A stretch of DNA of 43,111 bases, taken from positions 293 to 43,403 of the forward strand of contig JANWVU010000002.1 of assembly GCA_025056465.1 (NCBI GenBank). The letters run 5' to 3'. Both the position numbers and the translations under genes were made by a program. This stretch comes from Verrucomicrobiia bacterium (GTDB taxonomy: Bacteria; Verrucomicrobiota; Verrucomicrobiia; Palsa-1439). A model generated the notes under the pieces. The model searched no databases, was not told the origin of the DNA, and saw nothing but the letters and a program-made list of their open reading frames with translations. Positions 1 to 24,949 of the stretch are shown here, piece by piece; within the stretch, counting starts at the first letter, position 1, and every line of letters starts with the position of its first letter.

Positions 1-514
1 CGGCGAGAATTACGGCCGGGTTGTTGGCCAACGCGCGCGCGATTGCCACCCGTTGCTGTTGCCCGCCCGATAACTCGAACGGTTTGTGATGCAACCGGTG
101 GCCCAACCCCACACGCTCCAAAATCCGCGTCGCACGCGCCGTCGCCTCCGCCTTGCTTGCGCCCTGAAAAATCATCGGCAACATCACATTTTGCAGTGCG
201 GTCATCACCGGTATCAGGTTGAACGTCTGGAAGATGTACCCGATTTTGTTGCAGCGAATCCATGCTTGTTGCCGTTCGCTAAGCTCAAGCAGATTTTGTC
301 CCTCGAAATACACGCGCCCTTCCGTTGGCACATCCAGCGCGCCCACCTGATTGAAAAACGTGGACTTGCCGGACCCGCTCGGGCCCATGATGGACAAAAA
401 TTCGCCCCGATAAATGTCGAGTGTGATGCCCCGCAACGCCCACACATCCTCATCGCCCAACCGGTAACGCTTCTTGACCTCTTGGGCCGAGATGATGACG
501 TCACGGCTGCTCAC
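1..514 (-). CDS. ABC transporter ATP-binding protein (MacB/LolD-type), paralog 2; its C-terminus runs off the left window edge
   Basis: Absent from the ORF track because no stop codon lies in the window. Hand translation of the minus strand from GTG (514..512) gives VSSRDVIISAQEVKKRYRLGDEDVWALRGITLDIYRGEFLSIMGPSGSGKSTFFNQVGALD...IGYIFQTFNLIPVMT...LSGGQQQRVAIARALANNPAVILA. This shows Walker A, the Q-loop region and the ABC signature. The GTG overlaps the TGA of the upstream gene (GTGA at 511-514). Confidence 0.9.
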   Translation of the reverse strand, partial: MSSRDVIISAQEVKKRYRLGDEDVWALRGITLDIYRGEFLSIMGPSGSGKSTFFNQVGALDVPTEGRVYFEGQNLLELSERQQAWIRCNKIGYIFQTFNLIPVMTALQNVMLPMIFQGASKAEATARATRILERVGLGHRLHHKPFELSGGQQQRVAIARALANNPAVILA

Positions 515-879
515 GCCTTGTCCTCCGTACCGGTTGCCGCGGGATGATGAAGTTGAATCAATCGGCGGTCCAACAGGTCGCGGGTGAATTGAACCACCGC
601 GCGCCGACTGTCCGCCAACGAATGACCAAATCGCGCCGCAAATCGTGCCGCGATTTCACCCAGCGAATTCTCGCCATTGATCTGCTGCCAGTAGAACGTG
701 CCGTACTCGTCGAGTTGCACATGCAAATCCGCGCGCCAACCAAGCCGGTAGGCCAACCGTTGCGGCCAACCGCCACTGTAAAGCTGCGCTTTTCGCACGT
801 GCATCCGTCCGCGTGAATCCATACGCGCTTCCACCCCGGCAGCAATCAGAGGAATCGCGGCCAACGGGTCGTCCATCAT
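511..879 (-). CDS. PqqD-family-like small protein (RiPP recognition element fold), 122 aa
   Basis: ORF track 511..879. The segment HVQLDEYGTFYWQQINGENSLGEIAARFAARFGHSLADSRRAVVQFTRDLLDRRLIQL matches the PqqD pattern. That pattern is: L-n-x-x-g-x-x-iW-x-x-idG-x-x-s/t-v-x-eIa, then an acidic/variable stretch, then v-x-x-F-l-x-x-L-x-x-x-x-li. ATGA overlap with the upstream ATPase (876-879) and GTGA overlap with the downstream ATPase (511-514). Confidence 0.6.
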   Translation of the reverse strand: MMDDPLAAIPLIAAGVEARMDSRGRMHVRKAQLYSGGWPQRLAYRLGWRADLHVQLDEYGTFYWQQINGENSLGEIAARFAARFGHSLADSRRAVVQFTRDLLDRRLIQLHHPAATGTEDKA

Positions 880-1655
880 CGGAACTCTCCGCTGTTGAAA
901 TCCACCTCGCTCGGGCGCGCCATCCGCACAATGCGACCATCTTCAATCCACAAAATTCGGTCGGACCGCTTGAGCATTTTTAGATCGTGCGTGGCGCTCA
1001 CAATGGTCACCCCAAGTTTCTCTTTCAGCGCCGCCAGCAATTCAATCATCTCCTCGCCCGTTTTGAGGTCCAGGTTGCCGGTTGGTTCGTCGGCCAAAAT
1101 GATTTCGGGGCTGTTGGCCAGCGCACGCGCAATCGCCAATCGTTGTTGTTGTCCTCCCGACAACTCGGCCGGCTTGTGCAGCAACCGGTGTCCCAGTCCC
1201 ACCAAACGCAACAGATACACCGCCTTGTCGCGCGCCGTCTCATCGTCCAACCCGGCAAAGCTCATCGGCAACGTGACGTTTTCCAGACAGGTCATCACCT
1301 GAATCAGGTTGAATGTCTGAAAAATGTATCCGATTTTGCGACAGCGCAGCCACGCCAGCTCGTTATGGTTAAGCTGTGCAATGTCAACCTGGTCAATGTA
1401 CACCTTGCCCGAGGTCGGCTTGTCCAACGCGCCGATCATGTTGAACAACGTGGATTTGCCCGAACCGCTCGGTCCCATGATCGAGAGATATTCACCCTTG
1501 TACACGTCCAAGGTCGCTCCGCGCAGTGCGTGTGTCTCCACCGACCCCATCCGGTAGACCTTTTTGACATCGACCGCGCGGATGACACAGGCCGGCTCGC
1601 CCTGCGCCGGTGGTTTGAACAGATTTTCGTATTGGGCAGTGGCCGGTTGGTTCAT
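876..1655 (-). CDS. ABC transporter ATP-binding protein (MacB/LolD-type), paralog 1, 259 aa
   Basis: ORF 876..1784, trimmed to the internal ATG at 1655 (MNQPATAQ...), which forms an ATGA overlap with the stop of the upstream permease (1652-1655). Motifs: GPSGSGKST (Walker A), IGYIFQTFNL, LSGGQQQRLAIARALA (signature), ILADEPTGNLD (Walker B), SATHD (H-loop). Confidence 0.93.
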   Translation of the reverse strand: MNQPATAQYENLFKPPAQGEPACVIRAVDVKKVYRMGSVETHALRGATLDVYKGEYLSIMGPSGSGKSTLFNMIGALDKPTSGKVYIDQVDIAQLNHNELAWLRCRKIGYIFQTFNLIQVMTCLENVTLPMSFAGLDDETARDKAVYLLRLVGLGHRLLHKPAELSGGQQQRLAIARALANSPEIILADEPTGNLDLKTGEEMIELLAALKEKLGVTIVSATHDLKMLKRSDRILWIEDGRIVRMARPSEVDFNSGEFR

Positions 1656-2578
1656 ACGTTTGCTCGCAAGGCGTGCGCCGGTACCATCCGCGACGCAAAC
1701 TGCGCGGGATAAATCGCCGCCACCACCGAAAGAACCAGCCCCGCCAACACGCTCACAAAAAAGTATCCACCCAGCGTCCCCCACGAAATCGCCTCCCAGA
1801 CTCGTCCCAAACCAAACGACAACCCGTACACCACGATCGCGACCAGCGCACCGGCCATGCTGCCGACCAACCCACCCACCAACCCAATGATGCTCGACTC
1901 AATAAAAAATATCTCGCGAATAAACGCCGACAATGCACCCAAGCATTTCATCGTTCCGATTTCGCGAAATCGCTCCGTGACCGACATTAACATCGCGTTA
2001 CTGATCCCAATAACCGTGACCAGCAATGAAACCGCTAGGATCCACACCGTGCGCGTGCGCGCTTCCCGCTCGCGTTGTTGTTGTATGGCCAACTCTTCCG
2101 CACTCGGTTGGTACTGCAATGACCTCACACCCTCCCGTGCACTGACCCGTGTGGTGAAAACCAGCCGCGTTGACTCGGGTGTCGGTGGCTCGGCGGTTCC
2201 GACGACCAACACGGCGGTCACACCCTCGCCCGCGCCGACGAAGTGGACTCCCTCGCGCCGCAACGCTTCCAACAGCCGGTATTCACGCACCTCCAACTCG
2301 CCTTCTTGCACCAAATGGATGCGACGATCTTTTAGCGGCCCGATTTCAGAGCTCATCGTGTTGACCATCCGCCGCACGTCCGTGCGCAACTCCGCCTCGG
2401 CACGCACCCCCGTTTTGATCATTTGGCCTGTGAGGATGGACATCAGAAACGCCAATCCCAAAACCACACCGGTGATCGTCACCAGCGAGCGGCCCAACCG
2501 AATGCGAATTCCCTGCAACACCACACCCACGGCAATTGCGAACGGCAAGCGAACTTGTTCCTGAACCGCCTGTGGCAT
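1652..2578 (-). CDS. FtsX-family ABC transporter permease, 308 aa, with a short extracytoplasmic domain
   Basis: ORF 1652..2905, trimmed to the ATG at 2578 (MPQAVQEQVRLPF...), 2 nt after the stop of the upstream gene (2581-2583). N-terminal TM (ITGVVLGLAFLMSIL), then a loop of about 125 aa, then a C-terminal FtsX module (TERFREIGTMKCLGA... plus three hydrophobic helices). Confidence 0.85.
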   Translation of the reverse strand: MPQAVQEQVRLPFAIAVGVVLQGIRIRLGRSLVTITGVVLGLAFLMSILTGQMIKTGVRAEAELRTDVRRMVNTMSSEIGPLKDRRIHLVQEGELEVREYRLLEALRREGVHFVGAGEGVTAVLVVGTAEPPTPESTRLVFTTRVSAREGVRSLQYQPSAEELAIQQQREREARTRTVWILAVSLLVTVIGISNAMLMSVTERFREIGTMKCLGALSAFIREIFFIESSIIGLVGGLVGSMAGALVAIVVYGLSFGLGRVWEAISWGTLGGYFFVSVLAGLVLSVVAAIYPAQFASRMVPAHALRANV

Positions 2579-2580
2579 GG

Positions 2581-4686
2581 TCAGAAGGGAGCTCCCGACA
2601 CTGCTTGTTTGATCAGATTCAGCGCGATGGTGGCCATGCTCACCAGCCCAACCCCGGTAAAGTACCCTGCCGTGACCGTTGGAATCATCCGCAGGAAATT
2701 TTCCGCGCCGAATTTCCTCTGGAAGTAATACCGGCCAATCATAGCGCCCACGATCTCCAACACCATCGTATGCGGAATCCCACCCAACCCGCGCACCACA
2801 CCGTACACCAGCAACACCGGCAGGCCCACCATGCTCAATACGCTGTAGCCAGCCACCGTCACAACGGCGCCCGCCAGAATGACCGGCCCTTTCAATGCCT
2901 TCCAAAACTGACTGTCGCGAATGTCTTTTTTGGCGGGATCCTCACCCGGTGGGACAAATGTTGAGGATAAGCGCAAAGCAAAATGTTTCGCGTTCAACTC
3001 CCAAAACTTTTGCGCGTAGGGAAATGCCGGTGAGGGAATCGGTGTGGACGACCAGATGAACAGGAAGAATAAAAACGACAACACATACAACACTGGCAGC
3101 GCCACCAAATCCACTTTCACCAACGACGTGAATTTCACGCCGGTCAGCTCCGTGATGCGGAAGCCTTGCACCTGACCGCCGTAATTCTCAACCGGTATCG
3201 GTGCCAGCCAGATTTCTGTGCCTTTGACCCCCGACAGAATGAATGCTGTCTCGCGCACGAACGGCAAATCCACCGTTTGCCCCGCCACACCGAGCAACCG
3301 ACCGTTGATGTACGTCAGCAACGGCGTGTACACAAACTCAAACAGGATAATGAACACCAGCAGCATCCACGAACGCGGCAACAGCAACCAGCACAAAAGG
3401 ACCGTTGCCGTCCCCGCCACGATGTAACCCGCCAGCGCCAACCACAACGGAAAATCTCCCCGTCCCGTTCGCGGCGTGTCCCAGACACGCTCCGACGCTT
3501 GATTGGCGCGGCGCTGTTGCCGCAACTCAGCCACTCGCGCGCGCACATCGCGCACCGTCACAAAAATGCTGACGGCCGCAATCCCGATCGCCATGCCGAT
3601 GCCAAAGCTGAGATAAAAATCGAGCTGGTTGGCGAATAGCGTGTTGATGGTGTCCATACCGGGTTGCCAATGCGTCAGCACGCCGGTTTTGTGGAGTACC
3701 GGGTTCAACACCAGGGTGAGCATCACCGCGATAAATCCGCCCACAACTGCCCAGAACGGAATGATCATCCCGATCAGTACGATGCCGAGATCAAACGAGA
3801 TACCGGTCGGCGTGGCCGGTAGCAGTCCCTCCGTCAGGGCCGTGGTCTCGATCCACGGTTGCGGGATCAAAAAGACCGGTTTGTCGAGCACCAACGCAGT
3901 CAATGCGGGAATGCCGACCTGAAAGAAACCAAATCCCAATCCCAGCGTAGCGCCGAGCGCAAACAATCGCCACTTCGTACCCGTTTTCTTTTGTCCCGCC
4001 GCAAGAAACGCTTCCCGCGTGAATTCGACCCGGTCGGCCTCTCCACTGACTTTCTTGGGAGCCGCGGACTCGGTTTCCTCGGCCAACGCCATTGCGCCTT
4101 GTGCGTTGATCGGCGCCAGTGGGAACGGCAACTTCTCGATGTCCGATAACATGCGAAAGAAGAAATAACCGAGGCAGTATCGTTTGATGTAGCCGGCCAC
4201 CATCAGAAACACCATCAACGCCACCGGGATCATCCAATCAACATGCAGCAAATTGCGTTGAAGAATCGCCGGACTATTGGGGCCCGGCGCCCACCATGCC
4301 GGTAGGCTCTCGCTCATCCCGGCATCGCGCACGGCATCGCTGGTGACGTAATAGGCCCGTACGATCAAATCGCCGAATGGTCCCCCGGGCATCGTCGCCA
4401 CCATCACACTGGCCACGTGCAGCAGCACCACCAGCTCCTGTTTCGACATCGTTTTCAGCGCGCGCCGCGACACCTCGCTGAAGAGAATGACCGTGACCCA
4501 CGAAGCCACCGCGCCGAAACTGCCGCCAATCATCAACCCGAGATAGATCGAGCCCGGCAACATCACCAGGCCGCAAAACAAAATCCCCACCACCGCTTTC
4601 CAGCCGAAGCCCTCCCGAAACTCCGTTGGCGGCTCCAGCAGGTTGCGATACAGCGCCAGCTCGCGGTCTTCAGCGGTCGGTGGCAT
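2581..4686 (-). CDS. Large polytopic membrane protein, 701 aa, with distant OPT (oligopeptide transporter) superfamily resemblance
   Basis: ORF 2581..4809, trimmed to the ATG at 4686 (MPPTAEDRELALYRNLLEPP...). There are many hydrophobic helices throughout. OPT-like segments: GSIYLGLMIGGSFGAVASWVTVILFSEV, IEKLPFPLAPINAQGAMALAE (compare the OPT L-P-F/Y-P-E/S-G-T-A motif), and the C-terminal IPTVTAGYFTGVGLVSM. The family call is motif-level only. Confidence 0.7.
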   Translation of the reverse strand: MPPTAEDRELALYRNLLEPPTEFREGFGWKAVVGILFCGLVMLPGSIYLGLMIGGSFGAVASWVTVILFSEVSRRALKTMSKQELVVLLHVASVMVATMPGGPFGDLIVRAYYVTSDAVRDAGMSESLPAWWAPGPNSPAILQRNLLHVDWMIPVALMVFLMVAGYIKRYCLGYFFFRMLSDIEKLPFPLAPINAQGAMALAEETESAAPKKVSGEADRVEFTREAFLAAGQKKTGTKWRLFALGATLGLGFGFFQVGIPALTALVLDKPVFLIPQPWIETTALTEGLLPATPTGISFDLGIVLIGMIIPFWAVVGGFIAVMLTLVLNPVLHKTGVLTHWQPGMDTINTLFANQLDFYLSFGIGMAIGIAAVSIFVTVRDVRARVAELRQQRRANQASERVWDTPRTGRGDFPLWLALAGYIVAGTATVLLCWLLLPRSWMLLVFIILFEFVYTPLLTYINGRLLGVAGQTVDLPFVRETAFILSGVKGTEIWLAPIPVENYGGQVQGFRITELTGVKFTSLVKVDLVALPVLYVLSFLFFLFIWSSTPIPSPAFPYAQKFWELNAKHFALRLSSTFVPPGEDPAKKDIRDSQFWKALKGPVILAGAVVTVAGYSVLSMVGLPVLLVYGVVRGLGGIPHTMVLEIVGAMIGRYYFQRKFGAENFLRMIPTVTAGYFTGVGLVSMATIALNLIKQAVSGAPF

Positions 4687-7600
4687 GGGCGGGAACGCCG
4701 AGTTGGGCGTCGAGCAATTGTTTCGCTTCCTCGAACAACTCGGCGCGCTGGCCGGCATCCACGGCGCGCCAGTGCAGGAAATGACGGCGGATTTGTGCCA
4801 CGAAACCATGATTGAGCCGCATCCAGGCTTCGCGCGTGCCGCTCAGCCGTTCGAGCCGGATCATGGCGATGTACTCGCGGGTCTCGAGATCGGTCTGCAT
4901 GTGGATGACCAATTCCTGCGACACGCCGAGGTCGAACGGTTTGAGCCAGATGGTGCATCGAATTTCCGGGATCGGACACTCGGGTTGCAACGGATCCGGT
5001 TGCTCCGCCAGACCTAGCTGCGGTGGCCCCGCATAGAATCGGCCCGCGCTACCCTCTCCGTGGTCGAGGAAGTATCGGTGGAAAAATGCCAGAATCGCGA
5101 TGCGATCCCGGTGGCTGAACGTGAACGGCAGAGCAAACGAGAGCCGGTCGCCTTCGGGAGCCGGTAGTTTCCACCCCACGTCCTCGCTAGGCGCGGCAAT
5201 GCGCAACGCCGCCCGCGCCGGAAAATACGTCGAGAGCAACGTTGCGCCGATGATCGTGGCGGAGACATACACCGTCATTCGTGATGTGAAATTGAGCTGC
5301 ACCCCACCGGTCCAATCCAGCGCCGTCAACACGCTGCCGGTACCCTGAGCGAGCAAATAGCCCACGACCGTGCCCACCACCGAATAGACCAGCGCCTCCG
5401 CCATGAACATGAAAAACACGTAGCGTGGGGCAATGCCCACAGCGTTGTAAACGAAGATTTCATCCCGCCGCTCATATACCGAGCCGCGCATGGTGTTCAA
5501 CACTGTGATAGCCGCAATGAATAGCGGGATGAGCAAATCCAGCATGCCCTCTGCCGTGATCTCACGGCTCCGTCTGCCGAGGTAAGCAATGCCGCCCAAC
5601 CCATAGTAAACCGCGCGACCGGTCTGCTCGAGGTAACGGTTGATTTCCTCCCGCACCTCAGCGTATGGAGCGCTGCCCATGTCCACTGCCACGGATACCA
5701 TGCGCAGGAAACCATACGGCACGTGGAAGCCCACCAAATCGTCACGCGTGATCGCAACGAGCGCCGGGTCAATTAACGGTGCATTCTCATCCGCGATGAT
5801 CTCCCAAAACCGACCGGGCGCCGTCGGGCGCAATTCCGTCATCGCGGTCACGTCGAACGGCAACAAATTGCGACCGTCGAGGTCCGTCAACGACGCCAAA
5901 TCGGCTGGCTCGAAAATACCCCAAACCACAAACGGGCGTCCGTTGATCGTGACCGGCTGGGGTTGCTGCTCCACACGGGCCACCGTGATGCCGAGCTGAC
6001 GCGCCATGGGGGCGGAAATCAACACTGGCGTATCGGTCAGCTCGCTGACTTTGGGAAGCCAACCGGTCTTTGTCAGCAGGGGCAGTCGCGCGCCCAAAGG
6101 CTCCAACGCGTTGAGCAGAATGAGCGATTTGAAACTCACCTTACGGGTCTCACCCTCGCTCGTTGTGTGTTGCATGGTCAGCGCGGGGTTAAACGTTTCC
6201 CGCTCCCAGGTCTGCATCCCCACATACATCTGACGCGCGACGACGTTGTATTTTCGGCCATAGCGACGGTCCAACGCGAATTTTTCATCGGACGACACCG
6301 GCCGAAATTGCGGCGGCTTCACCAGCAACCCGTTGTACGGCGCCGGGCCGGTGGGCGTGACCATGTCGACAACATCGCTGTGCAGCGAACTGAAACACAG
6401 CATCGCGAACGTGATGAGCACGAGCGTGGCGCAAGTTAGCCCCGTGCGCACTTTGCGCCGGTGCATGTTGTTCAACCCGAGCGCAAAGGCCGTCCCAATG
6501 ACGCCGATAGTGTTCACCTCGGCCGCCTCTACCTGCGCACGTTTCCGCCGCAACGCTTCGAGATTCTCGCGGAAGCGTCCGCTGACCAGCGCAATGACTC
6601 CCAGGGAGATCAGCAAAATGATGAACCCCAACAAAATCATCAGCGAGGAGCGAATCATCGCGAACGCCGGATGCAACACTGCCAGCAGCGTGAACACGAC
6701 CACGAATATGATCGCGTTGGCGGTTAGTTGCAGGCGAATGTCGGCAAACCCGAAAACCAGTCGCTCAAAGAAAAACACAAACGGCACAAGCAAAAACAAA
6801 TACCAAATGATGCCCACGATCGCGTCGTAAATTGCGCCGCGGATAATCGGATAGTTTAGAATCGAGTACGTTGCCGAGCCCCGTGCATCTTCCAGCACGT
6901 CCGCGAGCGGTCGTTCGGGTTGTTCGGCCCGTTGCCAGAGCGTGCGCGCGTTTTCGTGAAACTCAGTGGTGCGCCGGTCGGCCATCCGGTAACGTTGCAA
7001 CGCCTCCAAACGTGGGCTGTTCAGCGATAGCATGGATCGCGCGGTTTCGAGCGCCTCCGGCTGCAGCAGCGGATGATGGGCAACAAGGTAGCCGCGAGCA
7101 TTGACCGTTGCGAGGCCGGCGGCAGGCTCATCGGGATGGGTGTTCATCATCACCGCGCGCGTGGTTTGAACCAATTCATTGTCAGGGGCACCGGCTTTGA
7201 GGCGGACAATGAAGCGCTGGTCCGGGGGGAGAAAAATCGTGACCGGCCCGTCGGTGCGGCAGAGGTTGAACGATCCAAACGGCGTCAGTGTGTCGGCACG
7301 GTCAAAATCCAAACCCGAATACTGTTTCATCGTCTGGGGGTTGGCGACGTCCAACACCGTGACCGGAGCCGCGCGAAACAGAATAAAATGGATTGGCTTC
7401 GTGACTCCTCCGTAAAGCGAGATACCGGCTGTGCGGTACAATGACTGCGCGGTAGCCCCTTCATCATTGACGTGGGCGATGACGCCGTCGGCACCATAGG
7501 CGGCAGCAAAAAACTGGTGCCCCCAACCGGCAAAGAATCCTGAAGGTGCTGACAACAACTCGTAATTTCCGTACGCATCGGTCACAAGAAAGAGCCGACG

Positions 7601-9697
7601 GAAGTGGCCATTGTGATGAAACTCAGGTCCTTTGCTGCCAACCAAGGCTCCAGCGAGCGTATAATTAGGAATTACCGATTCGCCGATCCCGCCGACGTAA
7701 ACCGTTCCGTGGGCAACTAGGGGTGATGCCCAGCCGGGCTCCGCAAAGCGTCCGTTGCCGTGCGCATAAAAGAGGACCGTCTCCCCCCAAAATGCAAGCC
7801 CACGCTGGATCGTGGTCGCCTCCCGCATAAACGGCAACTCGACCGGCAACGCTGCACTGAGGTACGCGTCTGGCCGGTCGGGGTAGATCAAATCAAAGGC
7901 GGGGTACCAGAACTGATTCCAAAAATGCGCGCTGGGTGGCACATGTGCCATCGCACTGTCGGTCTGTTGAGCGAATTGCGGTGAGTAGGTGATTAGCTCG
8001 GGAACATCTTGGCCTTCGCGTTCCATGAGCTGGCGTACGGAAAATAGGTGTCGACTGATGAGCGGTCCGTTGATGCGATGCACAACACCCGGCCCGAGAT
8101 GGAAACTCACCGTTTCCGTGTTCTTCGCGAATGGCACCAGGCGCGGGCGCAGGACCACGATTTCACGGTAGCGTGCGAACAGATCATGAATCGCTAACTG
8201 TTGCTGCCGGTATCGCTCACGGCGCGCATGGTGCTCCGCCAACTCGGCAAACCGTTCCCGAAGCCGGTCGCGAAGCTGGCGTTCCTTGACCGTGTCCAAC
8301 CGCACCTGCATCAACCGCTCCAAGGAATAACCGGCGGCCGAGAAACTGTCGTCATACCGGCGTTTGGCCGCCAGATACACCTGATAGAGCGGATGGTGTA
8401 CATCGCGCAGTCCCTCCGCCACAACCGGGATGCGCGCCTGAAGCACCTGCTCGTTGTCCACCATCACGAGGGTGTTGAGGACGTGGCGTAATTGTTCATC
8501 AAAAAACCTTCGCATCGGTCCGGTCACGCTCTGCATGGCTTGGACCGTTGCGGACCGGTCGTCTAAAAAACCCGGTTGCTCGATCAGTCCACGCAGTTCG
8601 TTGACCCACCGAGCACGTTCCTGCTCTGCGACCCGCCGACGCTCAATTTCCGCGCGCGTGTTTTCGCGGCCCAACCGAGGTCCCATCGCTGCCAACAATT
8701 GCGAGTCTGCCTCGCAGGCCATGACGTCGGTGCCGGTCGCAATGAAAATGACATCGCGCAGCAGCGACGTCCGGTAGGCTTGCAGCCCTTTCAGTGCTTG
8801 CAACATCTGCACGAGCCCGTGCGCCTGAATTACGCCTGGTGCGCGATCCGGCAGGATCGAATAGGCATCGTAACCGGCCCGAATCACAAGCGCTTCAGCC
8901 GCTGGCTTTGGGCTTCTCATCACGCCAACAAGCACCGTGTTGGCAATGGGACGGATCGCGGTCTGAACATGCAGCGTGACGGATTCGCCGAGATGCCGGT
9001 AGATATCGGACGTGGCCATGAGCCGCACGAAGTTGATCGGCTCATGCGACAGCATGTTTTGGTTGATCTGATGCCACTGCTCGATTTTGAGTTGTTCCCA
9101 ACCGCCGCGCGGTGCCACGATCACGGCACGCACGCCGAGTTGCGCGTATGATGTCCAGCGCAGACCATAAATCGGCGGAGGCGCCAACGGGTCTAAGACC
9201 GCTATGCAGTCGTCAAACCGCTGTCGCGTCGCCAGCTCCTCGGGCGTCATCAAGACCAACCGCCCGGTTAGCCCGTTGGTTGGCGTGACCATGGGTTGGA
9301 CGTGATTGGGGAAAAACGGGTAAATCTCCACATCACCCAAAGGCCGTCCGCTGACATCAAGAATTTCGCGGCGCAACGTGACCGGCGCCGGAGTTTCTAG
9401 GTTCAATTCATAAGTCTCTAAGCCCGCTTGCTCAAATGCGCGTCGCACGTACTCCGCCGCGCGGACGTATCCCGGTTGCCCGATGAACCGGGAGCCGAAC
9501 GAGAGCACCACGTTCAATGCCGATTCGACCTCGCGCACGGACAGCGCGGCGCGCATCGCGTGGCGGTCGTAGTCGGTGGCCAGGTCCGTATCTGGTGGTC
9601 GCGGTTTGGGCGCGTAACACCGCACAAACGCCCCCATCGCCAGCACCGTTAGCGTCAAGGCCACGGCGGCTGTCACGATATTGAACACTCGATTCAA
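4670..9697 (-). CDS. Giant (1675 aa) double-FtsX ABC permease fusion. Order: N-terminal TM anchor, degenerate M28/PA peptidase-like ectodomain, helical charged region, unknown ectodomain, TM cluster, MacB-like periplasmic domain, canonical FtsX module, and an unknown cytoplasmic domain of about 175 aa
   Basis: Single uninterrupted ORF with a TTG start at 9697; GTG alternatives lie 3 and 7 codons in. aa 5-25 are hydrophobic (VFNIVTAAVALTLTVLAMGAF). aa ~55-340 are M28/PA-like (LTGRLVLM...DDCIAVLDP...LGVRAVIV; ALVIRAGYDAYS; VIFIATGTDVMA). aa 950-1040 hold three hydrophobic helices. aa 1086-1106 are a TM (LTCATLVLITFAMLCFSSL). aa 1386-1500 are FtsX (VYERRDEIFVYNAVGIAPRYVFFMFMAEALVYSVVG...). Confidence 0.85.
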   Translation of the reverse strand: MNRVFNIVTAAVALTLTVLAMGAFVRCYAPKPRPPDTDLATDYDRHAMRAALSVREVESALNVVLSFGSRFIGQPGYVRAAEYVRRAFEQAGLETYELNLETPAPVTLRREILDVSGRPLGDVEIYPFFPNHVQPMVTPTNGLTGRLVLMTPEELATRQRFDDCIAVLDPLAPPPIYGLRWTSYAQLGVRAVIVAPRGGWEQLKIEQWHQINQNMLSHEPINFVRLMATSDIYRHLGESVTLHVQTAIRPIANTVLVGVMRSPKPAAEALVIRAGYDAYSILPDRAPGVIQAHGLVQMLQALKGLQAYRTSLLRDVIFIATGTDVMACEADSQLLAAMGPRLGRENTRAEIERRRVAEQERARWVNELRGLIEQPGFLDDRSATVQAMQSVTGPMRRFFDEQLRHVLNTLVMVDNEQVLQARIPVVAEGLRDVHHPLYQVYLAAKRRYDDSFSAAGYSLERLMQVRLDTVKERQLRDRLRERFAELAEHHARRERYRQQQLAIHDLFARYREIVVLRPRLVPFAKNTETVSFHLGPGVVHRINGPLISRHLFSVRQLMEREGQDVPELITYSPQFAQQTDSAMAHVPPSAHFWNQFWYPAFDLIYPDRPDAYLSAALPVELPFMREATTIQRGLAFWGETVLFYAHGNGRFAEPGWASPLVAHGTVYVGGIGESVIPNYTLAGALVGSKGPEFHHNGHFRRLFLVTDAYGNYELLSAPSGFFAGWGHQFFAAAYGADGVIAHVNDEGATAQSLYRTAGISLYGGVTKPIHFILFRAAPVTVLDVANPQTMKQYSGLDFDRADTLTPFGSFNLCRTDGPVTIFLPPDQRFIVRLKAGAPDNELVQTTRAVMMNTHPDEPAAGLATVNARGYLVAHHPLLQPEALETARSMLSLNSPRLEALQRYRMADRRTTEFHENARTLWQRAEQPERPLADVLEDARGSATYSILNYPIIRGAIYDAIVGIIWYLFLLVPFVFFFERLVFGFADIRLQLTANAIIFVVVFTLLAVLHPAFAMIRSSLMILLGFIILLISLGVIALVSGRFRENLEALRRKRAQVEAAEVNTIGVIGTAFALGLNNMHRRKVRTGLTCATLVLITFAMLCFSSLHSDVVDMVTPTGPAPYNGLLVKPPQFRPVSSDEKFALDRRYGRKYNVVARQMYVGMQTWERETFNPALTMQHTTSEGETRKVSFKSLILLNALEPLGARLPLLTKTGWLPKVSELTDTPVLISAPMARQLGITVARVEQQPQPVTINGRPFVVWGIFEPADLASLTDLDGRNLLPFDVTAMTELRPTAPGRFWEIIADENAPLIDPALVAITRDDLVGFHVPYGFLRMVSVAVDMGSAPYAEVREEINRYLEQTGRAVYYGLGGIAYLGRRSREITAEGMLDLLIPLFIAAITVLNTMRGSVYERRDEIFVYNAVGIAPRYVFFMFMAEALVYSVVGTVVGYLLAQGTGSVLTALDWTGGVQLNFTSRMTVYVSATIIGATLLSTYFPARAALRIAAPSEDVGWKLPAPEGDRLSFALPFTFSHRDRIAILAFFHRYFLDHGEGSAGRFYAGPPQLGLAEQPDPLQPECPIPEIRCTIWLKPFDLGVSQELVIHMQTDLETREYIAMIRLERLSGTREAWMRLNHGFVAQIRRHFLHWRAVDAGQRAELFEEAKQLLDAQLGVPAHATDR

Positions 9698-14414: not shown

Positions 14415-17128
<2,714 letters not shown>

Positions 17129-17787: not shown

Positions 17788-17991
17788 ATGAGTTTGGAGC
17801 GCATCATCCGTGCGATTGCCGGCTCATTCATCTTGATCAGTTTGGCCTTGGCACACTTCGTCAGCCCGTACTGGCTGTGGTTCACCGTATTTGTGGGAGC
17901 CAACTTGCTGCAATCTGCTTTCACGAACTGGTGCCTCATGGAAATCATTTTGAGAAAGGCCGGTGTGGGTGGCGCATGCGCAAGCCGGTAG
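17788..17991 (+). CDS. DUF2892 (YgaP-like) small inner-membrane protein, 67 aa
   Basis: RIIRAIAGSFILISLALAHF...WLWFTVFVGANLLQSAFTNWCLMEIIL gives two hydrophobic helices and the conserved Cys-containing C-terminal motif. SD AAGGAGG lies at 17775-17781. Confidence 0.72.
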   Translation: MSLERIIRAIAGSFILISLALAHFVSPYWLWFTVFVGANLLQSAFTNWCLMEIILRKAGVGGACASR

Positions 17992-18950
17992 TTGTCCTCA
18001 GCGCGGTTGCCGCGTTGGCTCTCTACGGATGCGGGCACCGCACCGAGCCGGTGGCCGACACGACCACAACGGTGTCAGTAGAGACCCTTACCGTGCACCT
18101 GCAAAGGACGCCCGAAATTTTTGAAGTTGTTGGCACCGTGCGACCCCGCGTGTCGGCCACCATTTCAGCAAAGGTGCTGGCCGCGGTTGAGGAGGTCGCG
18201 GTCAAAGCCGGTGACGTCGTAACCAATGGCCAGTTGCTGGCGCGCTTGGATGCCCGTGAGTTGGCGGCCGAGTTCGACCGGGCGCGTGCCGATTATGAAC
18301 GGATCAAGACGTTGGTTGAACAACAAGCCGCCGCACCGGCGGAATTGGACGCCGTATATGCACGCTACCTGGTTGCCCAAGCAGCCCTGAGCAACACACG
18401 GGTGGTCGCGCCTTTCGATGGCGTAATCGCCAGCAAGCTTTGTGATGTCGGGGATATGGCCGCTCCGAACAAACCTCTGTTTATCATCGAGCAAACCGAC
18501 CGCTACCGGCTGGAGGCGTTTGTGCCCGAACGGTACGCCGCCGCCGCTGCGATCGGAAAACACGTGCACGTCATTCCCGAGGTGACGGGCGAAAAGTGCC
18601 AGGGCGTAATCGGGGAATCGGAACCCACGGCGGACACGGCGAGCCGGAGTTTTCTCATCAAGATTGATCTCGACTGCCGGCAACCGGTCAAATCCGGTGG
18701 CTTTGGCCGTGCGCAGTTGATCATCGGCGAGCGGTTTGCGTTGTTCGTGCCGCGCGAGGCCATCCACGTGCACGGCCAGTTGATGTACGTGTTTGTCGCC
18801 GAGAACAACCGCGCGACGATGCGTCTGGTGAAGCTCGGTCAGGAATACCTTGGAGCAGTGGAGATTTTGTCGGGTGTAAATCCCGACGAGCGCGTCATCG
18901 TAAAAGCCGAGGGTGTGCTGCGTGACGGCGCGCCCATCCGAACGCTGTGA
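17976..18950 (+). CDS. RND efflux periplasmic adaptor (membrane fusion protein), lipoprotein, 324 aa
   Basis: ORF 17877..18950, trimmed to the ATG at 17976 ([19 protein letters not shown], signal peptide plus lipobox). Shows the biotinyl-lipoyl/hairpin pattern ([17 protein letters not shown]...[16 protein letters not shown]...VVAPFDGVI). Overlaps the DUF2892 gene by 16 nt. Confidence 0.9.
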
Positions 18951-21900
18951 ACTCCCCAGCGCATCCAACTGATAACTTGGCGGGGCGGATTGTCCGTTAT
19001 TTCATTGATTCGAAGCTGACCCCGCTGGTGGTGATTGCCTCGGTGCTGCTCGGGGTTGCGGCGGTCGTGTTACTGCCCCGCGAGGAAGAGCCCCAAATCA
19101 TCGTACCGATGATTGACGTGTTTGTGAGCTTTCCAGGCGCATCCGCCGAGGAGGTTGCCGAGCGGGTCACCAAGCCGATGGAAAAGCTACTATGGGAAAT
19201 CCCTGGCGTTGAGTACATCTACTCGACGTCGCGGCGGGACGGCGCGATGGCGATTGTGCGGTTCGAGGTCGGTCACAATGAAGAAGACGCCATTGTCCGA
19301 CTGAACCAGAAGATGTTCGCCAACTATGACCTGATCCCGCCGGGGGTCAGCCAACCACTTATCAAACCGCGTCGCATCGATGACGTGCCCATCCTAACCT
19401 TGACGCTACACAGTCGCCGCTACGACCATTACATGTTGCGGCGGCTGGCGGCGCAGTTAGACGATGTCATCAAGCAAACCCCGGATGTTTCGGCAACTAC
19501 GTTGATTGGCGGACTGCGCCGACAATGCCGGGTGCTGCTGGACGTGAATCGGTTGGCAGCCTACCGGATTGATCCTCTCCGCGTGGTTAAAATGTTACAG
19601 GCCGCCAACCAGCAAACGTCGGCTGGCAGCTTTGCCTCGCAAAATCAGGAGATCTTGGTGGATACGGGAGGCTTCCTGCGCGATGCCGACGATGTGGCCG
19701 CCGTGGTGCTCGGTGTCGCCAACGGGCGGCCGGTATACCTGCGAGACGTCGCCACCATCGTGGATGGACCAGAGGAACCTTCCCAATACGTGTTATTCGG
19801 ACGGGGTCGAGCGCACGCCCCGGGTCAGGAATCGGTTGCGACCGGTGAAGAGCCTGCCGTCACCATCGCCGTGGCCAAGCGCAAAGGCACAAACGCAATT
19901 CGCGTCGCCGACCAAGTCCTGAAACGCATTGAGGCCCTCAAAGGCGTGGTGATTCCCTCCGATGTCGAAATCACAATCACCCGCCACTACGGTCACACTG
20001 CTGCGGAAAAATCCAACGAGTTACTGCTGCACATGGGCATCGCGGTAATTGGGGTCAGCGTCTTGATCGGCGTCGTGCTTGGCTGGCGCGAGTCCGGTGT
20101 GGTGGCCGTGGCCATCCCGGTCACACTCGCGCTGACATTGGCAACATTCTACTTTTTCGGGTTCACGCTGAATCGCATCACGTTGTTCGCGCTGATTTTC
20201 TCGATCGGTATCCTCGTGGATGACCCCATTGTGGATGTCGAAAACATCGTGCGCCATTTTCGATTGCCGCAGAATAAAGGACGTCCTCTTTTGGAGGTCA
20301 CCATCGAAGCCGTCAACGAAGTGCGTTCGCCGTTGATCTTGGCCACGTTGACGGTGATTGCGGCGATTTTGCCGATGGCATTTGTGCGCGGATTGATGGG
20401 GCCGTACATGCGACCAATCCCCATTGGAGCCAGCGCGGCGATGATCTTCTCGATGATCGTGGCGTTTGTGGTCACCCCATGGGCCGCCTATCGGATTTTG
20501 CGCGGTCAGGCAGGCCGTCACGATCATCATGGCGAGCAAGAGGACTGGACCACGCGCCTGTATCGGCGAGTGATGGCGCCGTTGATTCACCATCCGCTTT
20601 GGCAAGCTGCGTTTTTGGTGGGCATCACGGTGTTGCTCATTGGCTCGATAGCACTGGTGTATTTCAAGGCGGTTCGCGTGAAGATGTTGCCCTTCGATAA
20701 CAAAAGCGAGTTCCAAATTATTGTCGACATGGATGAGGGCACGACGCTCGAACACACCGCCCGCGTGGCGCGAGAAATCGCGGCGGTGGTGGCGGCCGAA
20801 CCGGAGGTGACGGACTACCAGATATACGTTGGCACCGCCGCGCCGTTTAATTTCAACGGATTGGTGCGCCACTACTTCTTACGGCAGGGGTCGAACGTTG
20901 CGGACATTCAGGTCAATCTTTTGCCAAGACATGAACGGCGGGCACAAAGCCATGAGATAGCCAAGCGAGTCCGACCGGCCGTGCAAGCGGTCGCCAACCG
21001 GTATCACGCACGGGTAAAAATCGCGGAGGTGCCACCGGGCCCCCCAGTATTACAAACCTTGGTCGCGGAGGTTTACGGACCCAACCGGTTTGAAAATGCG
21101 GCCAAGATCAAAGACCTCTTCCAGCGCACGGAGGGCGTGGTGGATGTGGACTGGTATGTTGAGGCGCCCCAGCAAAAAATTGTGTTGCAGATCGATCACG
21201 AGAAAGCCGCCCTCCACAACATCCAAGCCGCCGACATTGCACAGGTTGTGGCCATCGCGCTTGGAGGCCAGCCGGTGGGATTGATCCACCAACCGCAGGA
21301 GAAAGAAGACGTACGCATCGTCGTGCAGCTTCCGGTCGAGCAACGGTCACGTTTGACAGGATTAATGCAACTGCATGTGGGCGGCGTACCGTTGAGTGAG
21401 TTGGTTCGCGAACATAACACCGTGCGCGACCGCAGCATTTATCACAAAAATCTGCTGCCGGTTACCTATGTGACCGCCGACGTCGCCGGCAGGGAGGAAA
21501 GTCCCGTTTACGCGATTTTGAAGTTGAATCAAGCAATCGCCGAGATGGGTCTCGACATCTATTTCACACGCCAACCGGATTCTCTCGACCGCCCGTCCAT
21601 CAAGTGGGATGGCGAGTGGCACATCACCTACGAGGTGTTTCGCGATCTGGGATTGGCGTTCGCCGCCGTGCTGGTTCTGATTTATGTGCTGGTCGTAGGG
21701 TGGTTTCGTTCATTCCAAACACCGTTTATCATCATGGCAGCGATTCCCTTTTCCCTCGTCGGTATCCTACCGGCTCATTGGGCCATGGACGCGTTTTTCA
21801 CGGCAACTAGCATGATTGGATTTATCGCCGGCGCCGGGATCGTTGTGCGCAACTCGATCATCTTGGTGGACTTCATTGAGCTGCGCCTCGCCGAGGGAAT

Positions 21901-22129
21901 GTCGCTGGCGGATGCGGTCGTGGATGCTGGCGCGGTGCGGTTCCGTCCGATGATGTTGACCGCCGCGGCGGTGGTGGTCGGCGCCAGCGTGATTCTGTTC
22001 GATCCAATCTTTCAGGGTCTGGCCATCTCGTTGATGGCCGGTGAGATTGCTTCCCTGCTGCTGAGCCGATTGGCCGTGCCGGTAATCTACTACTTGGCCA
22101 ACCGCCACCGCTACGCCGCAACTTCGTGA
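18947..22129 (+). CDS. RND efflux transporter permease (AcrB/CzcA superfamily), 1060 aa
   Basis: The GTG at 18947 overlaps the adaptor stop (GTGA). Typical 12-TM, two-large-loop organisation, with [33 protein letters not shown] near the N-terminus, [22 protein letters not shown] in TM4, and [20 protein letters not shown] in the second half. Confidence 0.94.
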
Positions 22130-23224: not shown

Positions 23225-24949
23225 CTACACTTCCAAGACCGACACCTTGTGAAGCGCCAGCGACATCGGCACCAAAATCATCAGCAGGCTAAGCAACGAA
23301 ACGAACAGCCAAGCAACGACGATGTTCAAGGTGAGGTTGCCGCCCCAACTGAAGTAAATCGGTACCGCTTCCGCCGCAATCACCAACGCGATGTAAACCA
23401 TGCTGACTACGAAGCAAAATGTGCCGCCGAACCCCGAAACGATTTTGGCGGGGTTGTCGTACCGGTTGGCCGTTGAACCGCTGCCGAGGTTCGGAAACAG
23501 CGCGCCAATGCCCACGGCAATGCCACATAAACCCAAACTCACCAGCACAGCCGTTGCGCAGAATAAAATGGTCATCCAACCCGGCAGTTGCAGCATCCAG
23601 CTCGACAAGCAGGTCAGCGAAAACGTGATGCATACTGACCACGCGCTGCTCAGCCAAAACTTTTCTAACACCACCCGTTTCAACCCGTAGGGCACCAGCC
23701 CAACGATCCAAAGGCGTCGAATTTCGAGGCTGAATTGCGGGTACACAAACCGTGTTGTCAGCGTCGCGAGTGTCATGCTCGACGCGCCGAGGTTCAAGAA
23801 CGCGACAAAACCCGCCCAATGCTGGTTGTTCCAGTCATAAGAGACATTGCGCAGATTGATCACATACAGGCCGAGCAACCCGAAGAAGATCACAAACTGG
23901 CTCCACTGCGATGTATCGCGCCAAAACACGCGCATATCTTTGATCATCAGCGCGCGGGTGGCAGGGTGCAAACCGGGCCACAGGCTCATCAAACGCTCCA
24001 GCCAGGTGCAGTTACTATCCCCGAGCAGATTTCGGTGAAAAACCTGACCCGGGGTACCGATGGTGCCCTGGCTTTTGTTGCGTGACCAGCTTTCGTAAAA
24101 AAGTCGCTGACTGACCACCGAGCAAACCAGCAACACCATCATCGCGTTGCTGACCAACAACAGAAAGAAAAACAACCCACGCCCGCTCCAACCTTCACCC
24201 CACGCAATCATTCCGGTTGCCATCCAGTAACTGGGTAACAACGGTTGCAAGGCGATCCGGCTGTTGGCGAGCAACTGATTCAAGGATTGCACCAACTCGG
24301 TCTGTTGAAGCTGCGCCGCGTCTACCGGCCGTAGGTACCAACCGGCGAAAATGACGAGCACCGTTCCAAGCGTGAACAATCCCCATTTGAAGTATTGCCG
24401 ATGCAAAAACCGCGTCAGCGCCAACACCACCAACAAGCCCAATCCACCCGGTATGATGATGAACGGCACGAACAGCAGCAGTGCCTTCAAATAAAACGCC
24501 GGTGCCGCGTCACGCACCACCCCGTAGGCCGCCACAAACGGGGCCGCCAAAAACAGAAACGCCCAACTGGCGAGAAAAACGGTTTCGACGGTTTTCCAGC
24601 GGAACACATCTGCGTATCGAATGGGCATGGTTAACAACCAGCCCGTTTCCGGGCTTTTGAACAACGTGGAGTACCCGATGACCACGTTGGAGAAAAACAA
24701 CATGACCAGTAGGAACGCAAAAAACAGATACAGCATGCGGTCCATCAAGACTTCGCCCAGACCCGGTACCCGAAGGAGATACCCAAACCCGGACCGGAAC
24801 AACACGTACGCCGCAATCCAATAGCCCACCACGAAAATGCCGATGACAAACAGCATCAATCGTGATTGATCGCGTAGCGACTGAATGCGGCGCTGGCTCA
24901 TCCGCCCGTAAAGCGCCAACAGCAAACCCAAAACTCGTGACGCGCTCAT
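23225..24949 (-). CDS. Multi-pass membrane permease of an ABC exporter, 574 aa
   Basis: Hydrophobic helices run along the whole length (for example LMLFVIGIFVVGYWIAAYVLF, LYLFFAFLLVMLFFSNVVIGY, LLLFVPFIIIPGGLGLLVVLAL, TFCFVVSMVYIALVIAAEAV). The ATG forms an ATGA overlap with the stop of the upstream ATPase (24946-24949). No specific family motif was recognised. Confidence 0.75.
   Translation of the reverse strand: MSASRVLGLLLALYGRMSQRRIQSLRDQSRLMLFVIGIFVVGYWIAAYVLFRSGFGYLLRVPGLGEVLMDRMLYLFFAFLLVMLFFSNVVIGYSTLFKSPETGWLLTMPIRYADVFRWKTVETVFLASWAFLFLAAPFVAAYGVVRDAAPAFYLKALLLFVPFIIIPGGLGLLVVLALTRFLHRQYFKWGLFTLGTVLVIFAGWYLRPVDAAQLQQTELVQSLNQLLANSRIALQPLLPSYWMATGMIAWGEGWSGRGLFFFLLLVSNAMMVLLVCSVVSQRLFYESWSRNKSQGTIGTPGQVFHRNLLGDSNCTWLERLMSLWPGLHPATRALMIKDMRVFWRDTSQWSQFVIFFGLLGLYVINLRNVSYDWNNQHWAGFVAFLNLGASSMTLATLTTRFVYPQFSLEIRRLWIVGLVPYGLKRVVLEKFWLSSAWSVCITFSLTCLSSWMLQLPGWMTILFCATAVLVSLGLCGIAVGIGALFPNLGSGSTANRYDNPAKIVSGFGGTFCFVVSMVYIALVIAAEAVPIYFSWGGNLTLNIVVAWLFVSLLSLLMILVPMSLALHKVSVLEV

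Follow-up and report, generated by a model that had tools for sequence, protein, structure and literature searches.

A conserved bacterial operon encoding a type VII ABC permease with a predicted pseudo-M28/PA peptidase ectodomain

The stretch of Verrucomicrobiia bacterium DNA analysed here (contig JANWVU010000002.1, positions 293 to 43,403; 43,111 nucleotides in full, referred to as the window) carried on its minus strand a TTG-initiated gene for a giant permease of 1675 amino acids, which belonged to the ATP-binding cassette (ABC) type. Sequence comparison and structure modelling indicated that residues ~45-655 of the protein form an extracytoplasmic M28 peptidase fold into which a PA domain and a helical stretch of ~175 residues are inserted (Table 1). 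The C-terminal half was a bona fide MacB/LolCE/FtsX-type permease, joined to the M28-like region via a beta-rich region and three extra transmembrane helices (TMs). The ectodomain is an M28 homologue by fold and descent. In this protein all five zinc ligands, as well as the Glu that serves as general base, were replaced, and the loss extended throughout its family, which identified the ectodomain as a pseudo-peptidase; failing the catalytic definition of M28, it is a non-peptidase homologue. In eukaryotes, pseudo-peptidases with the M28 fold such as TfR, nicastrin and nicalin serve as receptors or gatekeepers, and type VII ABC transporters mechanically drive extracytoplasmic partners such as EnvC, TesA, LolA and MacA. 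By analogy with these systems, the protein is likely to carry a non-catalytic docking or gating ectodomain on a type VII ABC permease that is moved by ATP-driven mechanotransmission. A 99% identical protein in the databases was named only 'ABC transporter permease [Verrucomicrobiae bacterium]'. A preliminary description of the window had quoted several peptides of a degenerate M28/PA region, and all of them were located in the open reading frame (ORF) of the giant gene.

The M28 homology of the protein was established by transitivity, since the single sequence had no Pfam match to M28 while the family profile and several relatives did. Pfam and NCBIfam searches with the whole protein and with 400-residue pieces detected FtsX only (residues 1391-1500), and no Pfam match was found for the first 950 residues even at E<=10. 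A phmmer search of the first 400 residues against the PDB returned chance matches only, and a word-indexed homologue search with a 400-residue N-terminal fragment returned none, so that the full-length query was required. A family profile built from 29 sequences was then compared with 177,635 PDB sequences. It matched 2ek8 (E 2.1e-11, profile positions 57-345 on chain positions 12-289) and BSAP/YwaD (6hc6, E 3.6e-11), both M28 aminopeptidases with a PA domain, as well as Vibrio AAP (1amp, E 1.5e-5), nicastrin (E 1.4e-5), PaAP and 3iib. Six of the 29 family members, the most distant ones, individually passed Pfam Peptidase_M28, among them P0029 (E 1.5e-13) and P0025 (22.6 bits, cut-off 21.3). 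Weak PA and nicastrin matches were also found in relatives, although the Pfam PA match of P0028 reached only E 0.18, and P0029 matched nicalin at E 3e-4 with the YDxFxxxPxxxxGA spacing in common. An AlphaFold2 (AF2) model of residues 36-700, calculated with the family alignment as input, had a mean predicted local distance difference test score (pLDDT) of 90.9 and a predicted template modelling score of 0.89. The top Foldseek matches of this model in the PDB were 2ek8, PaAP, 3iib and BSAP (E 3e-13 to 4e-11, probability 1.00), with a target-normalised template modelling score of up to 0.62 (BSAP), followed by TfR1 and GCPII at E ~1e-10. The M28/PA relationship proposed in the preliminary description was thus borne out by both the profile and the structural comparison.

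The modelled alpha/beta fold was that of the zinc aminopeptidases of family M28 (PF04389), and the profile aligned the inserted domain at residue level to the PA domain (PF02225) of 2ek8 and BSAP. Domains of this family have ~120 residues, lie within a loop of a protease core and carry the motifs G-x-I-x-L-x...GA-x-x-V-I. Three of the quoted peptides, LTGRLVLM (residues 143-150), DDCIAVLDP (residues 162-170) and LGVRAVIVAP (residues 187-196), lay in this domain. The preliminary description had limited the M28/PA region to residues 55-340 (nucleotides 8678-9535); the fold was real, but the core continued to about residue 655. The Foldseek alignments extended over ~650 columns for aminopeptidases of 410-470 residues, which showed that the long insertion was bridged and that both halves of the core were covered. 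When the C-terminal third of the core was compared with the PDB as a separate profile, the sole match was the C-terminus of the M28 peptidase 3iib, collinear but weak (E 1.3) and not significant alone. The conserved fold-determining motifs of the ectodomain were GSRFxGxPG, YPFxPNxxQPxxTP and YD..S.LPD.APG, together with R314, and residues R70, G73 and G76 of the first motif were 97-100% conserved. The helical insertion directly followed the strand of the former Glu-Glu motif. It was present in the main clade, missing from the distant relatives P0026 and P0029, and weakly conserved. Its long helices are reminiscent of the coiled coils that couple EnvC and PcsB to FtsX. The beta-rich region beyond the core (residues ~656-880) had no Pfam or PDB sequence match; it contained the conserved motifs G.V.V.GVG.S.VP.YPL.GALV and TDPYGRY.

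The co-catalytic zinc ligands of M28 peptidases are, in AAP numbering, His97, Asp117, Glu152, Asp179 and His256, and the general base is Glu151. HMMER alignments to 2ek8 and BSAP placed G275 (nucleotides 8873-8875) at the position of His97, within ALVIRAGYDAYS (residues 269-280, nucleotides 8858-8893), and the Asp99 of the H-x-D motif was kept as D277. Asp117, the bridging Asp of 'NDDASG', was replaced by Q291 (nucleotides 8825-8827) or I290 in APGVIQAHGLVQML (residues 286-299, nucleotides 8801-8842), and Glu151-Glu152 corresponded to D324-V325 (nucleotides 8723-8728) in VIFIATGTDVMA (residues 316-327, nucleotides 8717-8752). These positions coincided with the earlier alignment by hand. The nucleotides 8858-8875 given there for the first motif were in the right place but spanned only GYDAYS, the last six residues of ALVIRAGYDAYS. 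The two C-terminal ligands, which the preliminary description had not located, were found to be replaced as well, Asp179 by R519 (nucleotides 8141-8143) and His256 by A590 (nucleotides 7928-7930). These two equivalences were based on the strand and helix register of the model and on the family alignment, in which P0029 retains 'NIDL' and 'FDG'. The proposed loss of the zinc ligands therefore extended to all five of them, and no intact set was found elsewhere in the segment.

An analysis of the same columns in up to 142 relatives revealed that the loss was common to the family. The His97 column contained Ser, Pro, Tyr, His or Ala, with His in 20 of the 142 sequences, whereas the neighbouring Asp equivalent to D277 was practically invariant (140/142). 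The Asp117 column was occupied by Gln, Glu, Ala or Ser, so that some members have Glu at the bridging position. The Glu151 column contained Arg, His, Gln or Ser, the Glu152 column mostly hydrophobic or small residues (Ala, Val, Met, Phe, Gly, Ser), and the Glu-Glu pair was found in none of the 142. Among the 112 relatives that covered all five columns, 56 had no ligand-compatible residue, 36 had one, 18 had two and 2 had three; none exceeded three of five. Even the Desulfobulbaceae-type subfamily, which Pfam recognised as M28, had SG[HQ]xQxLxG where the Glu-Glu motif was expected. A fused relative with intact ligands was sought with a profile built from the members that most resembled M28, and only more ligand-less, mostly partial proteins were obtained. 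These family-wide counts indicated that the metal site was lost early and in the whole family, while the replacement residues themselves were not conserved. The particular substitutions, whose conservation in orthologues the preliminary description had raised, were thus not kept; only the absence of the ligands was shared.

The permease half was identified by profile, model and domain searches. Hydropathy and AF2 gave the order TM1, ectodomain to about residue 955, three extra TMs (residues ~958-1040), basic cytoplasmic linker, FtsX module and C-terminal domain, with 8 TMs in total and the three extra ones before the canonical four-helix module. Counting the helices back from the FtsX module placed the M28-like region outside the membrane, and the Arg-rich N-termini of the homologues agreed with the N-in orientation of TM1. 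A second AF2 model of residues 640-1675 had a pLDDT of 80.7, and its Foldseek matches were MacB, LolC/LolE, YtrF, HrtB and YbbP (E 2e-9 to 2e-5), with the first four at 2e-9 to 1e-6. The C-terminal part of the family profile matched MacB (5gko, E 1.1e-11) and also LolC, YtrF and LolF, and MacB_PCD was detected in 5 relatives. The module (PF02687) consisted of a connecting helix, a TM (residues 1085-1107), a periplasmic core domain (residues ~1109-1378) and three further TMs, which is the type VII arrangement with the extracytoplasmic core domain between the first and second helices of a four-TM unit, and two ATPase genes of the LolD/MacB/FtsE type were found in the operon. An extracytoplasmic domain N-terminal to a MacB/LolC-type FtsX module was supported by hydropathy, Pfam, AF2 and Foldseek together, in line with the ectodomain tethered to an FtsX module that the preliminary description had proposed. 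The TM2-TM3 region held strongly conserved motifs, with the consensus sequences WYLxLLVPFVFFFEKLxFGF and LHPAF. The C-terminal cytoplasmic domain (residues 1502-1675) had no Pfam or PDB sequence match and was highly conserved, with many of the invariant residues in the family alignment of residues 640-1675; MacB, LolC and FtsX lack a counterpart of it.

Table 1. Features of the giant permease and its operon (window coordinates)
Feature	Position	Strand	Basis
Giant permease gene, 1675 residues, TTG start	4670..9697	-	ORF list; 1675-codon ORF
TM1, N-terminal signal anchor, residues 6-28, N-in/C-out	9614..9682	-	Hydropathy; orientation by helix counting
M28-like core segment 1, residues ~45-114, invariant GSRFxGxPG	9356..9565	-	Profile alignment to 2ek8/6hc6; AF2 secondary structure
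PA domain within the core, residues ~115-245	8963..9355	-	Alignment to PA of 2ek8/BSAP; top Foldseek matches all PA-containing
M28-like core segment 2, residues ~246-335, degenerate motifs	8693..8962	-	HMMER alignments; family columns; AF2 strand/helix register
Helical insertion, ~175 residues, residues ~336-509, four to five long helices	8171..8692	-	AF2 helices 294-473 (model numbering), pLDDT ~90
M28-like core segment 3, residues ~510-655, carries R519 and A590	7733..8170	-	Foldseek span; P0029 family alignment; secondary-structure register
Beta-rich extracytoplasmic region, residues ~656-880	7058..7732	-	AF2 strands, moderate model confidence
Stalk helices and three extra TMs (TM2-4), residues ~881-1054	6536..7057	-	Hydropathy; AF2 helices
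Type VII ABC (MacB/LolC/FtsX) permease module, residues ~1063-1501	5195..6511	-	Pfam FtsX E 1.4e-11
C-terminal cytoplasmic alpha/beta domain, residues ~1502-1675	4673..5194	-	AF2
Polytopic membrane protein, 701 residues	2581..4686	-	Directly downstream of giant gene
Small FtsX/LolE-like permease, ~308 residues from Met110 of ORF	1652..2578	-	Pfam FtsX 3e-13; NCBIfam MacB/LolE/FtsX
LolD/MacB/FtsE-type ABC ATPase 1, ~259 residues	876..1655	-	Pfam ABC_tran 2.9e-33; NCBIfam LolD 2e-67
PqqD-like small protein, 122 residues	511..879	-	Pfam PqqD 3.5e-8, above gathering score
Second ABC ATPase, cut by window start	1..520	-	Walker A GPSGSGKST; signature LSGGQQQR

The giant gene was the first gene of a tightly packed minus-strand operon. 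It overlapped the gene of the 701-residue membrane protein by 17 nucleotides, 2 nucleotides separated the stop of the latter from the start of the small FtsX gene, the FtsX stop abutted the start of ATPase 1, and the ATPase 1 stop abutted the PqqD start. These very tight junctions suggested translational coupling, and the mechanically assigned starts of the 742-, 417- and 302-residue ORFs are probably too far upstream. The best NCBIfam matches of the ATPase were LolD, MacB and FtsE. The PqqD-like gene sat between two LolD-type ATPase genes. PqqD-like proteins have a peptide-chaperone fold, that of the recognition element (RRE) for ribosomally synthesised and post-translationally modified peptides (RiPPs), and the protein hints at a peptide substrate; no radical S-adenosylmethionine gene, other RiPP enzyme or precursor gene was visible in the operon. 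The 701-residue protein had no Pfam, NCBIfam or PDB match.

The same gene order was found at a locus (L001) beside P0011, a relative whose ectodomain was 36% identical, and the same components, including the PqqD gene, were found at a distant locus (L002) around P0028. The 701-residue protein was 57% identical to its L001 counterpart, against ~36% for the giant permease, and ATPase 2 was 74% identical to its counterpart. In the 52 species loci with at least 5.5 kb of downstream sequence, the 701-residue protein was encoded in 45 and directly adjoined the giant gene in 41, the small FtsX was found in 39, the ATPases in 37-38 and a detectable PqqD in 24. In 58 of the 62 loci with sufficient upstream DNA, the ectodomain lay directly upstream of the permease part. 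The identities across the cassette ranged from 23-54% for the ectodomain, the lowest, through 34-76% for the 701-residue protein to 54-85% for ATPase 2. A membrane protein of the DUF6785/DUF6784 type was encoded next to the giant gene at L001 (7447-9999) and L002 (14763-16763). The window copy had no such neighbour, and the gene upstream of it encoded a polyprenyl synthetase and ran in the opposite direction. The possibility that the 701-residue protein is a diverged DUF6785 protein was rejected (BLASTP E 0.83), and it was unrelated to the DUF6785 proteins of the two loci. The other window genes appeared unrelated to the operon; they included a catalase-peroxidase-type gene (14415-16703, minus strand), an HlyD and AcrB resistance-nodulation-division efflux pair (17877-22129, plus), a gene for an ABC_tran_2 protein (23225-24949, minus), an amino-acid kinase/GNAT fusion (31657-33000, minus) and a cluster for a polysaccharide flippase, a phosphodiesterase and a GT4 glycosyltransferase (34.8-40 kb, minus).

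The family proved to be large. The full-length query retrieved 29 homologue clusters, of which 25 were full length (~1650-1830 residues) with the same architecture, and an exhaustive HMMER search with residues 1-960 retrieved 561 clusters at 50% identity and E<=1e-3, 110 of them at E<=1e-30. A scan of one genome per species with the C-terminal alignment as the query showed that at least 573 species genomes encode a relative of the giant gene. The carriers belonged mainly to the Planctomycetes-Verrucomicrobia-Chlamydiae group, with Verrucomicrobiota, Lentisphaerota, Kiritimatiellia and Planctomycetota prevailing, and there were further ones in Sumerlaeota, Armatimonadota, Latescibacterota and Omnitrophota. 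Of the 80 loci kept, 78 were labelled as metagenome-assembled genomes (MAGs) or uncultured, and the other two contigs came from one Verrucomicrobia isolate assembly. The family was named in the databases only as 'ABC transporter permease' or 'M28 family peptidase, partial', and literature searches on a fusion of M28 with FtsX or a type VII ABC transporter, or on the cassette, found no report. One partial relative with a ligand-less M28-like ectodomain (P0180) was attributed to a Candidatus Bathyarchaeota MAG, an archaeal assignment that could stem from horizontal transfer or from misbinning.

Among known proteins, the PA-M28 aminopeptidases, namely BSAP/YwaD (6hc6), Aneurinibacillus AM-1 (2ek8), Pseudomonas PaAP (8acr) and the Shewanella enzyme (3iib), were the best sequence-profile and structural matches of the ectodomain, with the same fold, the same core-PA-core order and an extracytoplasmic location. 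They are soluble di-zinc enzymes that are active and carry both the H/D/E/D/H ligands and the Glu-Glu pair, whereas in the giant protein all of these were replaced, the ~175-residue insertion was added and the domain was part of a 1675-residue membrane protein. The preliminary description had assigned the region the layout of M28B. TfR1 and GCPII, which MEROPS places in M28B, do share with it an M28 core, an inserted PA (apical) domain, an added helical domain and a membrane-anchored ectodomain, and TfR1 also lacks the zinc ligands and is a non-catalytic receptor. However, their Foldseek alignments covered only 350-390 columns and ranked below the bacterial aminopeptidases, and the helical dimerisation domain of M28B is C-terminal to the protease-like core, while the helical domain of the giant protein lies between core segments 2 and 3. 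TfR and GCPII are moreover single-pass type II proteins with no transporter fusion. The protein was therefore not specifically of the M28B type, because the bacterial aminopeptidases were closer and the helical domain was inserted rather than C-terminal. Nicastrin of gamma-secretase and nicalin of the endoplasmic reticulum Nicalin-NOMO-TMEM147/BOS complex likewise have M28-like ectodomains without zinc ligands and are non-catalytic subunits of polytopic machines. They differ from the giant protein in being eukaryotic, single-pass and non-covalently associated, with no ABC engine, and the sequence similarity was confined to ~80 residues.

On the transporter side, FtsEX-EnvC is a type VII ABC engine that acts through an extracytoplasmic partner, EnvC, which has a degenerate LytM/M23 domain (PMC7668044), and YbbAP-TesA is a type VII ABC system with an extracytoplasmic partner hydrolase (PMC12646458). 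In FtsEX-EnvC, which was compared here together with FtsEX-PcsB/RipC/CwlO, the ATP cycle is passed to a helix-rich protein with a dead peptidase fold, a layout analogous to that of the giant protein. In contrast, EnvC is a separate protein of the M23 fold and its FtsX is a small homodimer, whereas here the dead M28/PA fold was fused in cis and the operon encoded two permeases, two ATPases, the 701-residue membrane protein and the PqqD-like protein, with no amidase partner evident. MacB, LolCDE, YbbAP-TesA, YtrEF and HrtBA share the four-TM FtsX module, the periplasmic core domain between TM1 and TM2 and the LolD/MacB-type ATPases, and a heteromeric permease pair like LolC/LolE is probable here. 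They lack the ~930-residue N-terminal ectodomain, the three extra TMs and the ~170-residue C-terminal cytoplasmic domain. No adaptor or outer-membrane factor genes of the MacA/TolC type were found in the operon.

These comparisons suggest how the machine may work. In a LolCDE-like heteromer, the giant permease would probably be joined by the small FtsX-like permease and by both LolD-type ATPases. As ATP is bound and hydrolysed in the cytoplasm, the FtsX helices would relay the movement to the periplasmic core domain, which would pass it on to the pseudo-M28/PA/helical ectodomain. The ectodomain may then serve, without catalysis, to dock or gate an envelope partner or substrate, a role comparable to those of nicastrin and nicalin in their complexes, TfR as a receptor and the degenerate EnvC with FtsEX. 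This machine probably also includes the membrane protein of 701 residues and the PqqD-like protein. The ligand-binding function that the preliminary description had suggested for the pseudo-peptidase was likewise drawn from such parallels and is kept here as a suggestion.

Several points weigh against this interpretation. The docking or gating role is proposed by analogy, and the pairing with the small FtsX as well as the participation of the 701-residue and PqqD-like proteins are read from gene order. The equivalences of R519 and A590 came from family alignment, secondary-structure register and the Foldseek span rather than from a residue-level superposition, and MAFFT runs disagreed slightly around residues 585-600. 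Residues H293, D324 and H591 adjoin three of the former ligand positions and leave room for a non-canonical single-metal site. The low conservation of the ectodomain, the least conserved part, fits a fast-evolving binding surface and equally a relaxed structural remnant. According to the latter explanation, the pseudo-M28/PA region would be a spacer, strut or assembly scaffold with no specific ligand, and the work would be done by the MacB-like periplasmic core domain together with the 701-residue protein. The ectodomain was indeed the fastest-evolving part of the cassette, its conservation was concentrated in the fold-determining motifs and was weak both in the helical insertion and in the last third of the core, and distant relatives lacked the insertion altogether. 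However, ~900 extracytoplasmic residues were kept at near-constant length in hundreds of species of several phyla, which argues for selection beyond that on a spacer. The YPFxPNxxQPxxTP motif and the YD..S.LPD.APG loop at the rim of the old active site were strongly conserved, and TfR, nicastrin and nicalin, as is well established, all bind or gate. A structural remnant is thus an unlikely explanation, though one with an appreciable chance of being right.

It is far less probable that the ectodomain is still a hydrolase, working through a non-canonical metal site or another nucleophile and regulated or fed by the ABC engine like a fused YbbAP-TesA or FtsEX-PcsB. The M28 fold was intact and confidently modelled, D277 was invariant and P283, G288 and R314 were nearly so, and some relatives retained a His at the first ligand position or a Glu at the bridging one. 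Type VII ABC systems do partner with hydrolases (PMC12646458, PMC7668044). Yet no member exceeded three of five ligand-compatible residues and half had none, the Glu152 column was mostly hydrophobic or small and the general-base column was Arg, His or Gln, and what was conserved were structural residues common to every M28 fold, for example GSRxxGxxG and the Asp that follows the lost His. The candidate residues of the window protein close to the former ligand sites were limited to close relatives, with H293 in 6 of 143, D324 in 8 of 140 and H591 in at most 6 of 121 sequences, where it fell outside the eight commonest residues of its column. Since they were not conserved, H293, D324 and H591 were rejected as a substitute metal site, and it is unlikely that a non-canonical site still supports catalysis. 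The remaining explanation, that the M28/PA resemblance is spurious or that separate genes were fused into the giant ORF by an error of assembly or annotation, could draw on the lack of any Pfam, NCBIfam or PDB sequence match for the first 950 residues and of homologues in the fragment search, but was refuted by the profile (E 2e-11) and Foldseek (E 3e-13, probability 1.00) matches, by the six relatives that pass Pfam M28, by collinear homologues of ~1650-1830 residues on independent contigs from many studies and by the ectodomain lying directly upstream of the permease part in nearly all loci with sufficient upstream DNA.

The non-catalytic docking or gating ectodomain moved by a type VII engine remains the likely reading, and the importance of the system is at present potential rather than demonstrated. 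A bolder proposal, speculative and rather improbable as a whole, is that the six-gene cassette is an unrecognised envelope machine of the Planctomycetes-Verrucomicrobia-Chlamydiae group, Sumerlaeota, Armatimonadota and Latescibacterota, in which the dead aminopeptidase would be an ATP-actuated, nicastrin-like receptor or gate for free peptide N-termini, the 701-residue protein would handle the peptide or protein substrate, and delivery or sensing of that peptide in the cytoplasm would be the task of the PqqD-like protein. Two further orphan components, the 701-residue membrane protein and the C-terminal cytoplasmic domain, are brought to attention by this analysis. The family combines an M28 pseudo-peptidase and the mechanical engine of a type VII ABC transporter in one polypeptide, within a conserved operon and across the many species genomes counted above. 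It provides a bacterial example of the M28 fold without its catalytic ligands, and may serve as a natural single-chain model for an ABC engine that moves a large ectodomain.

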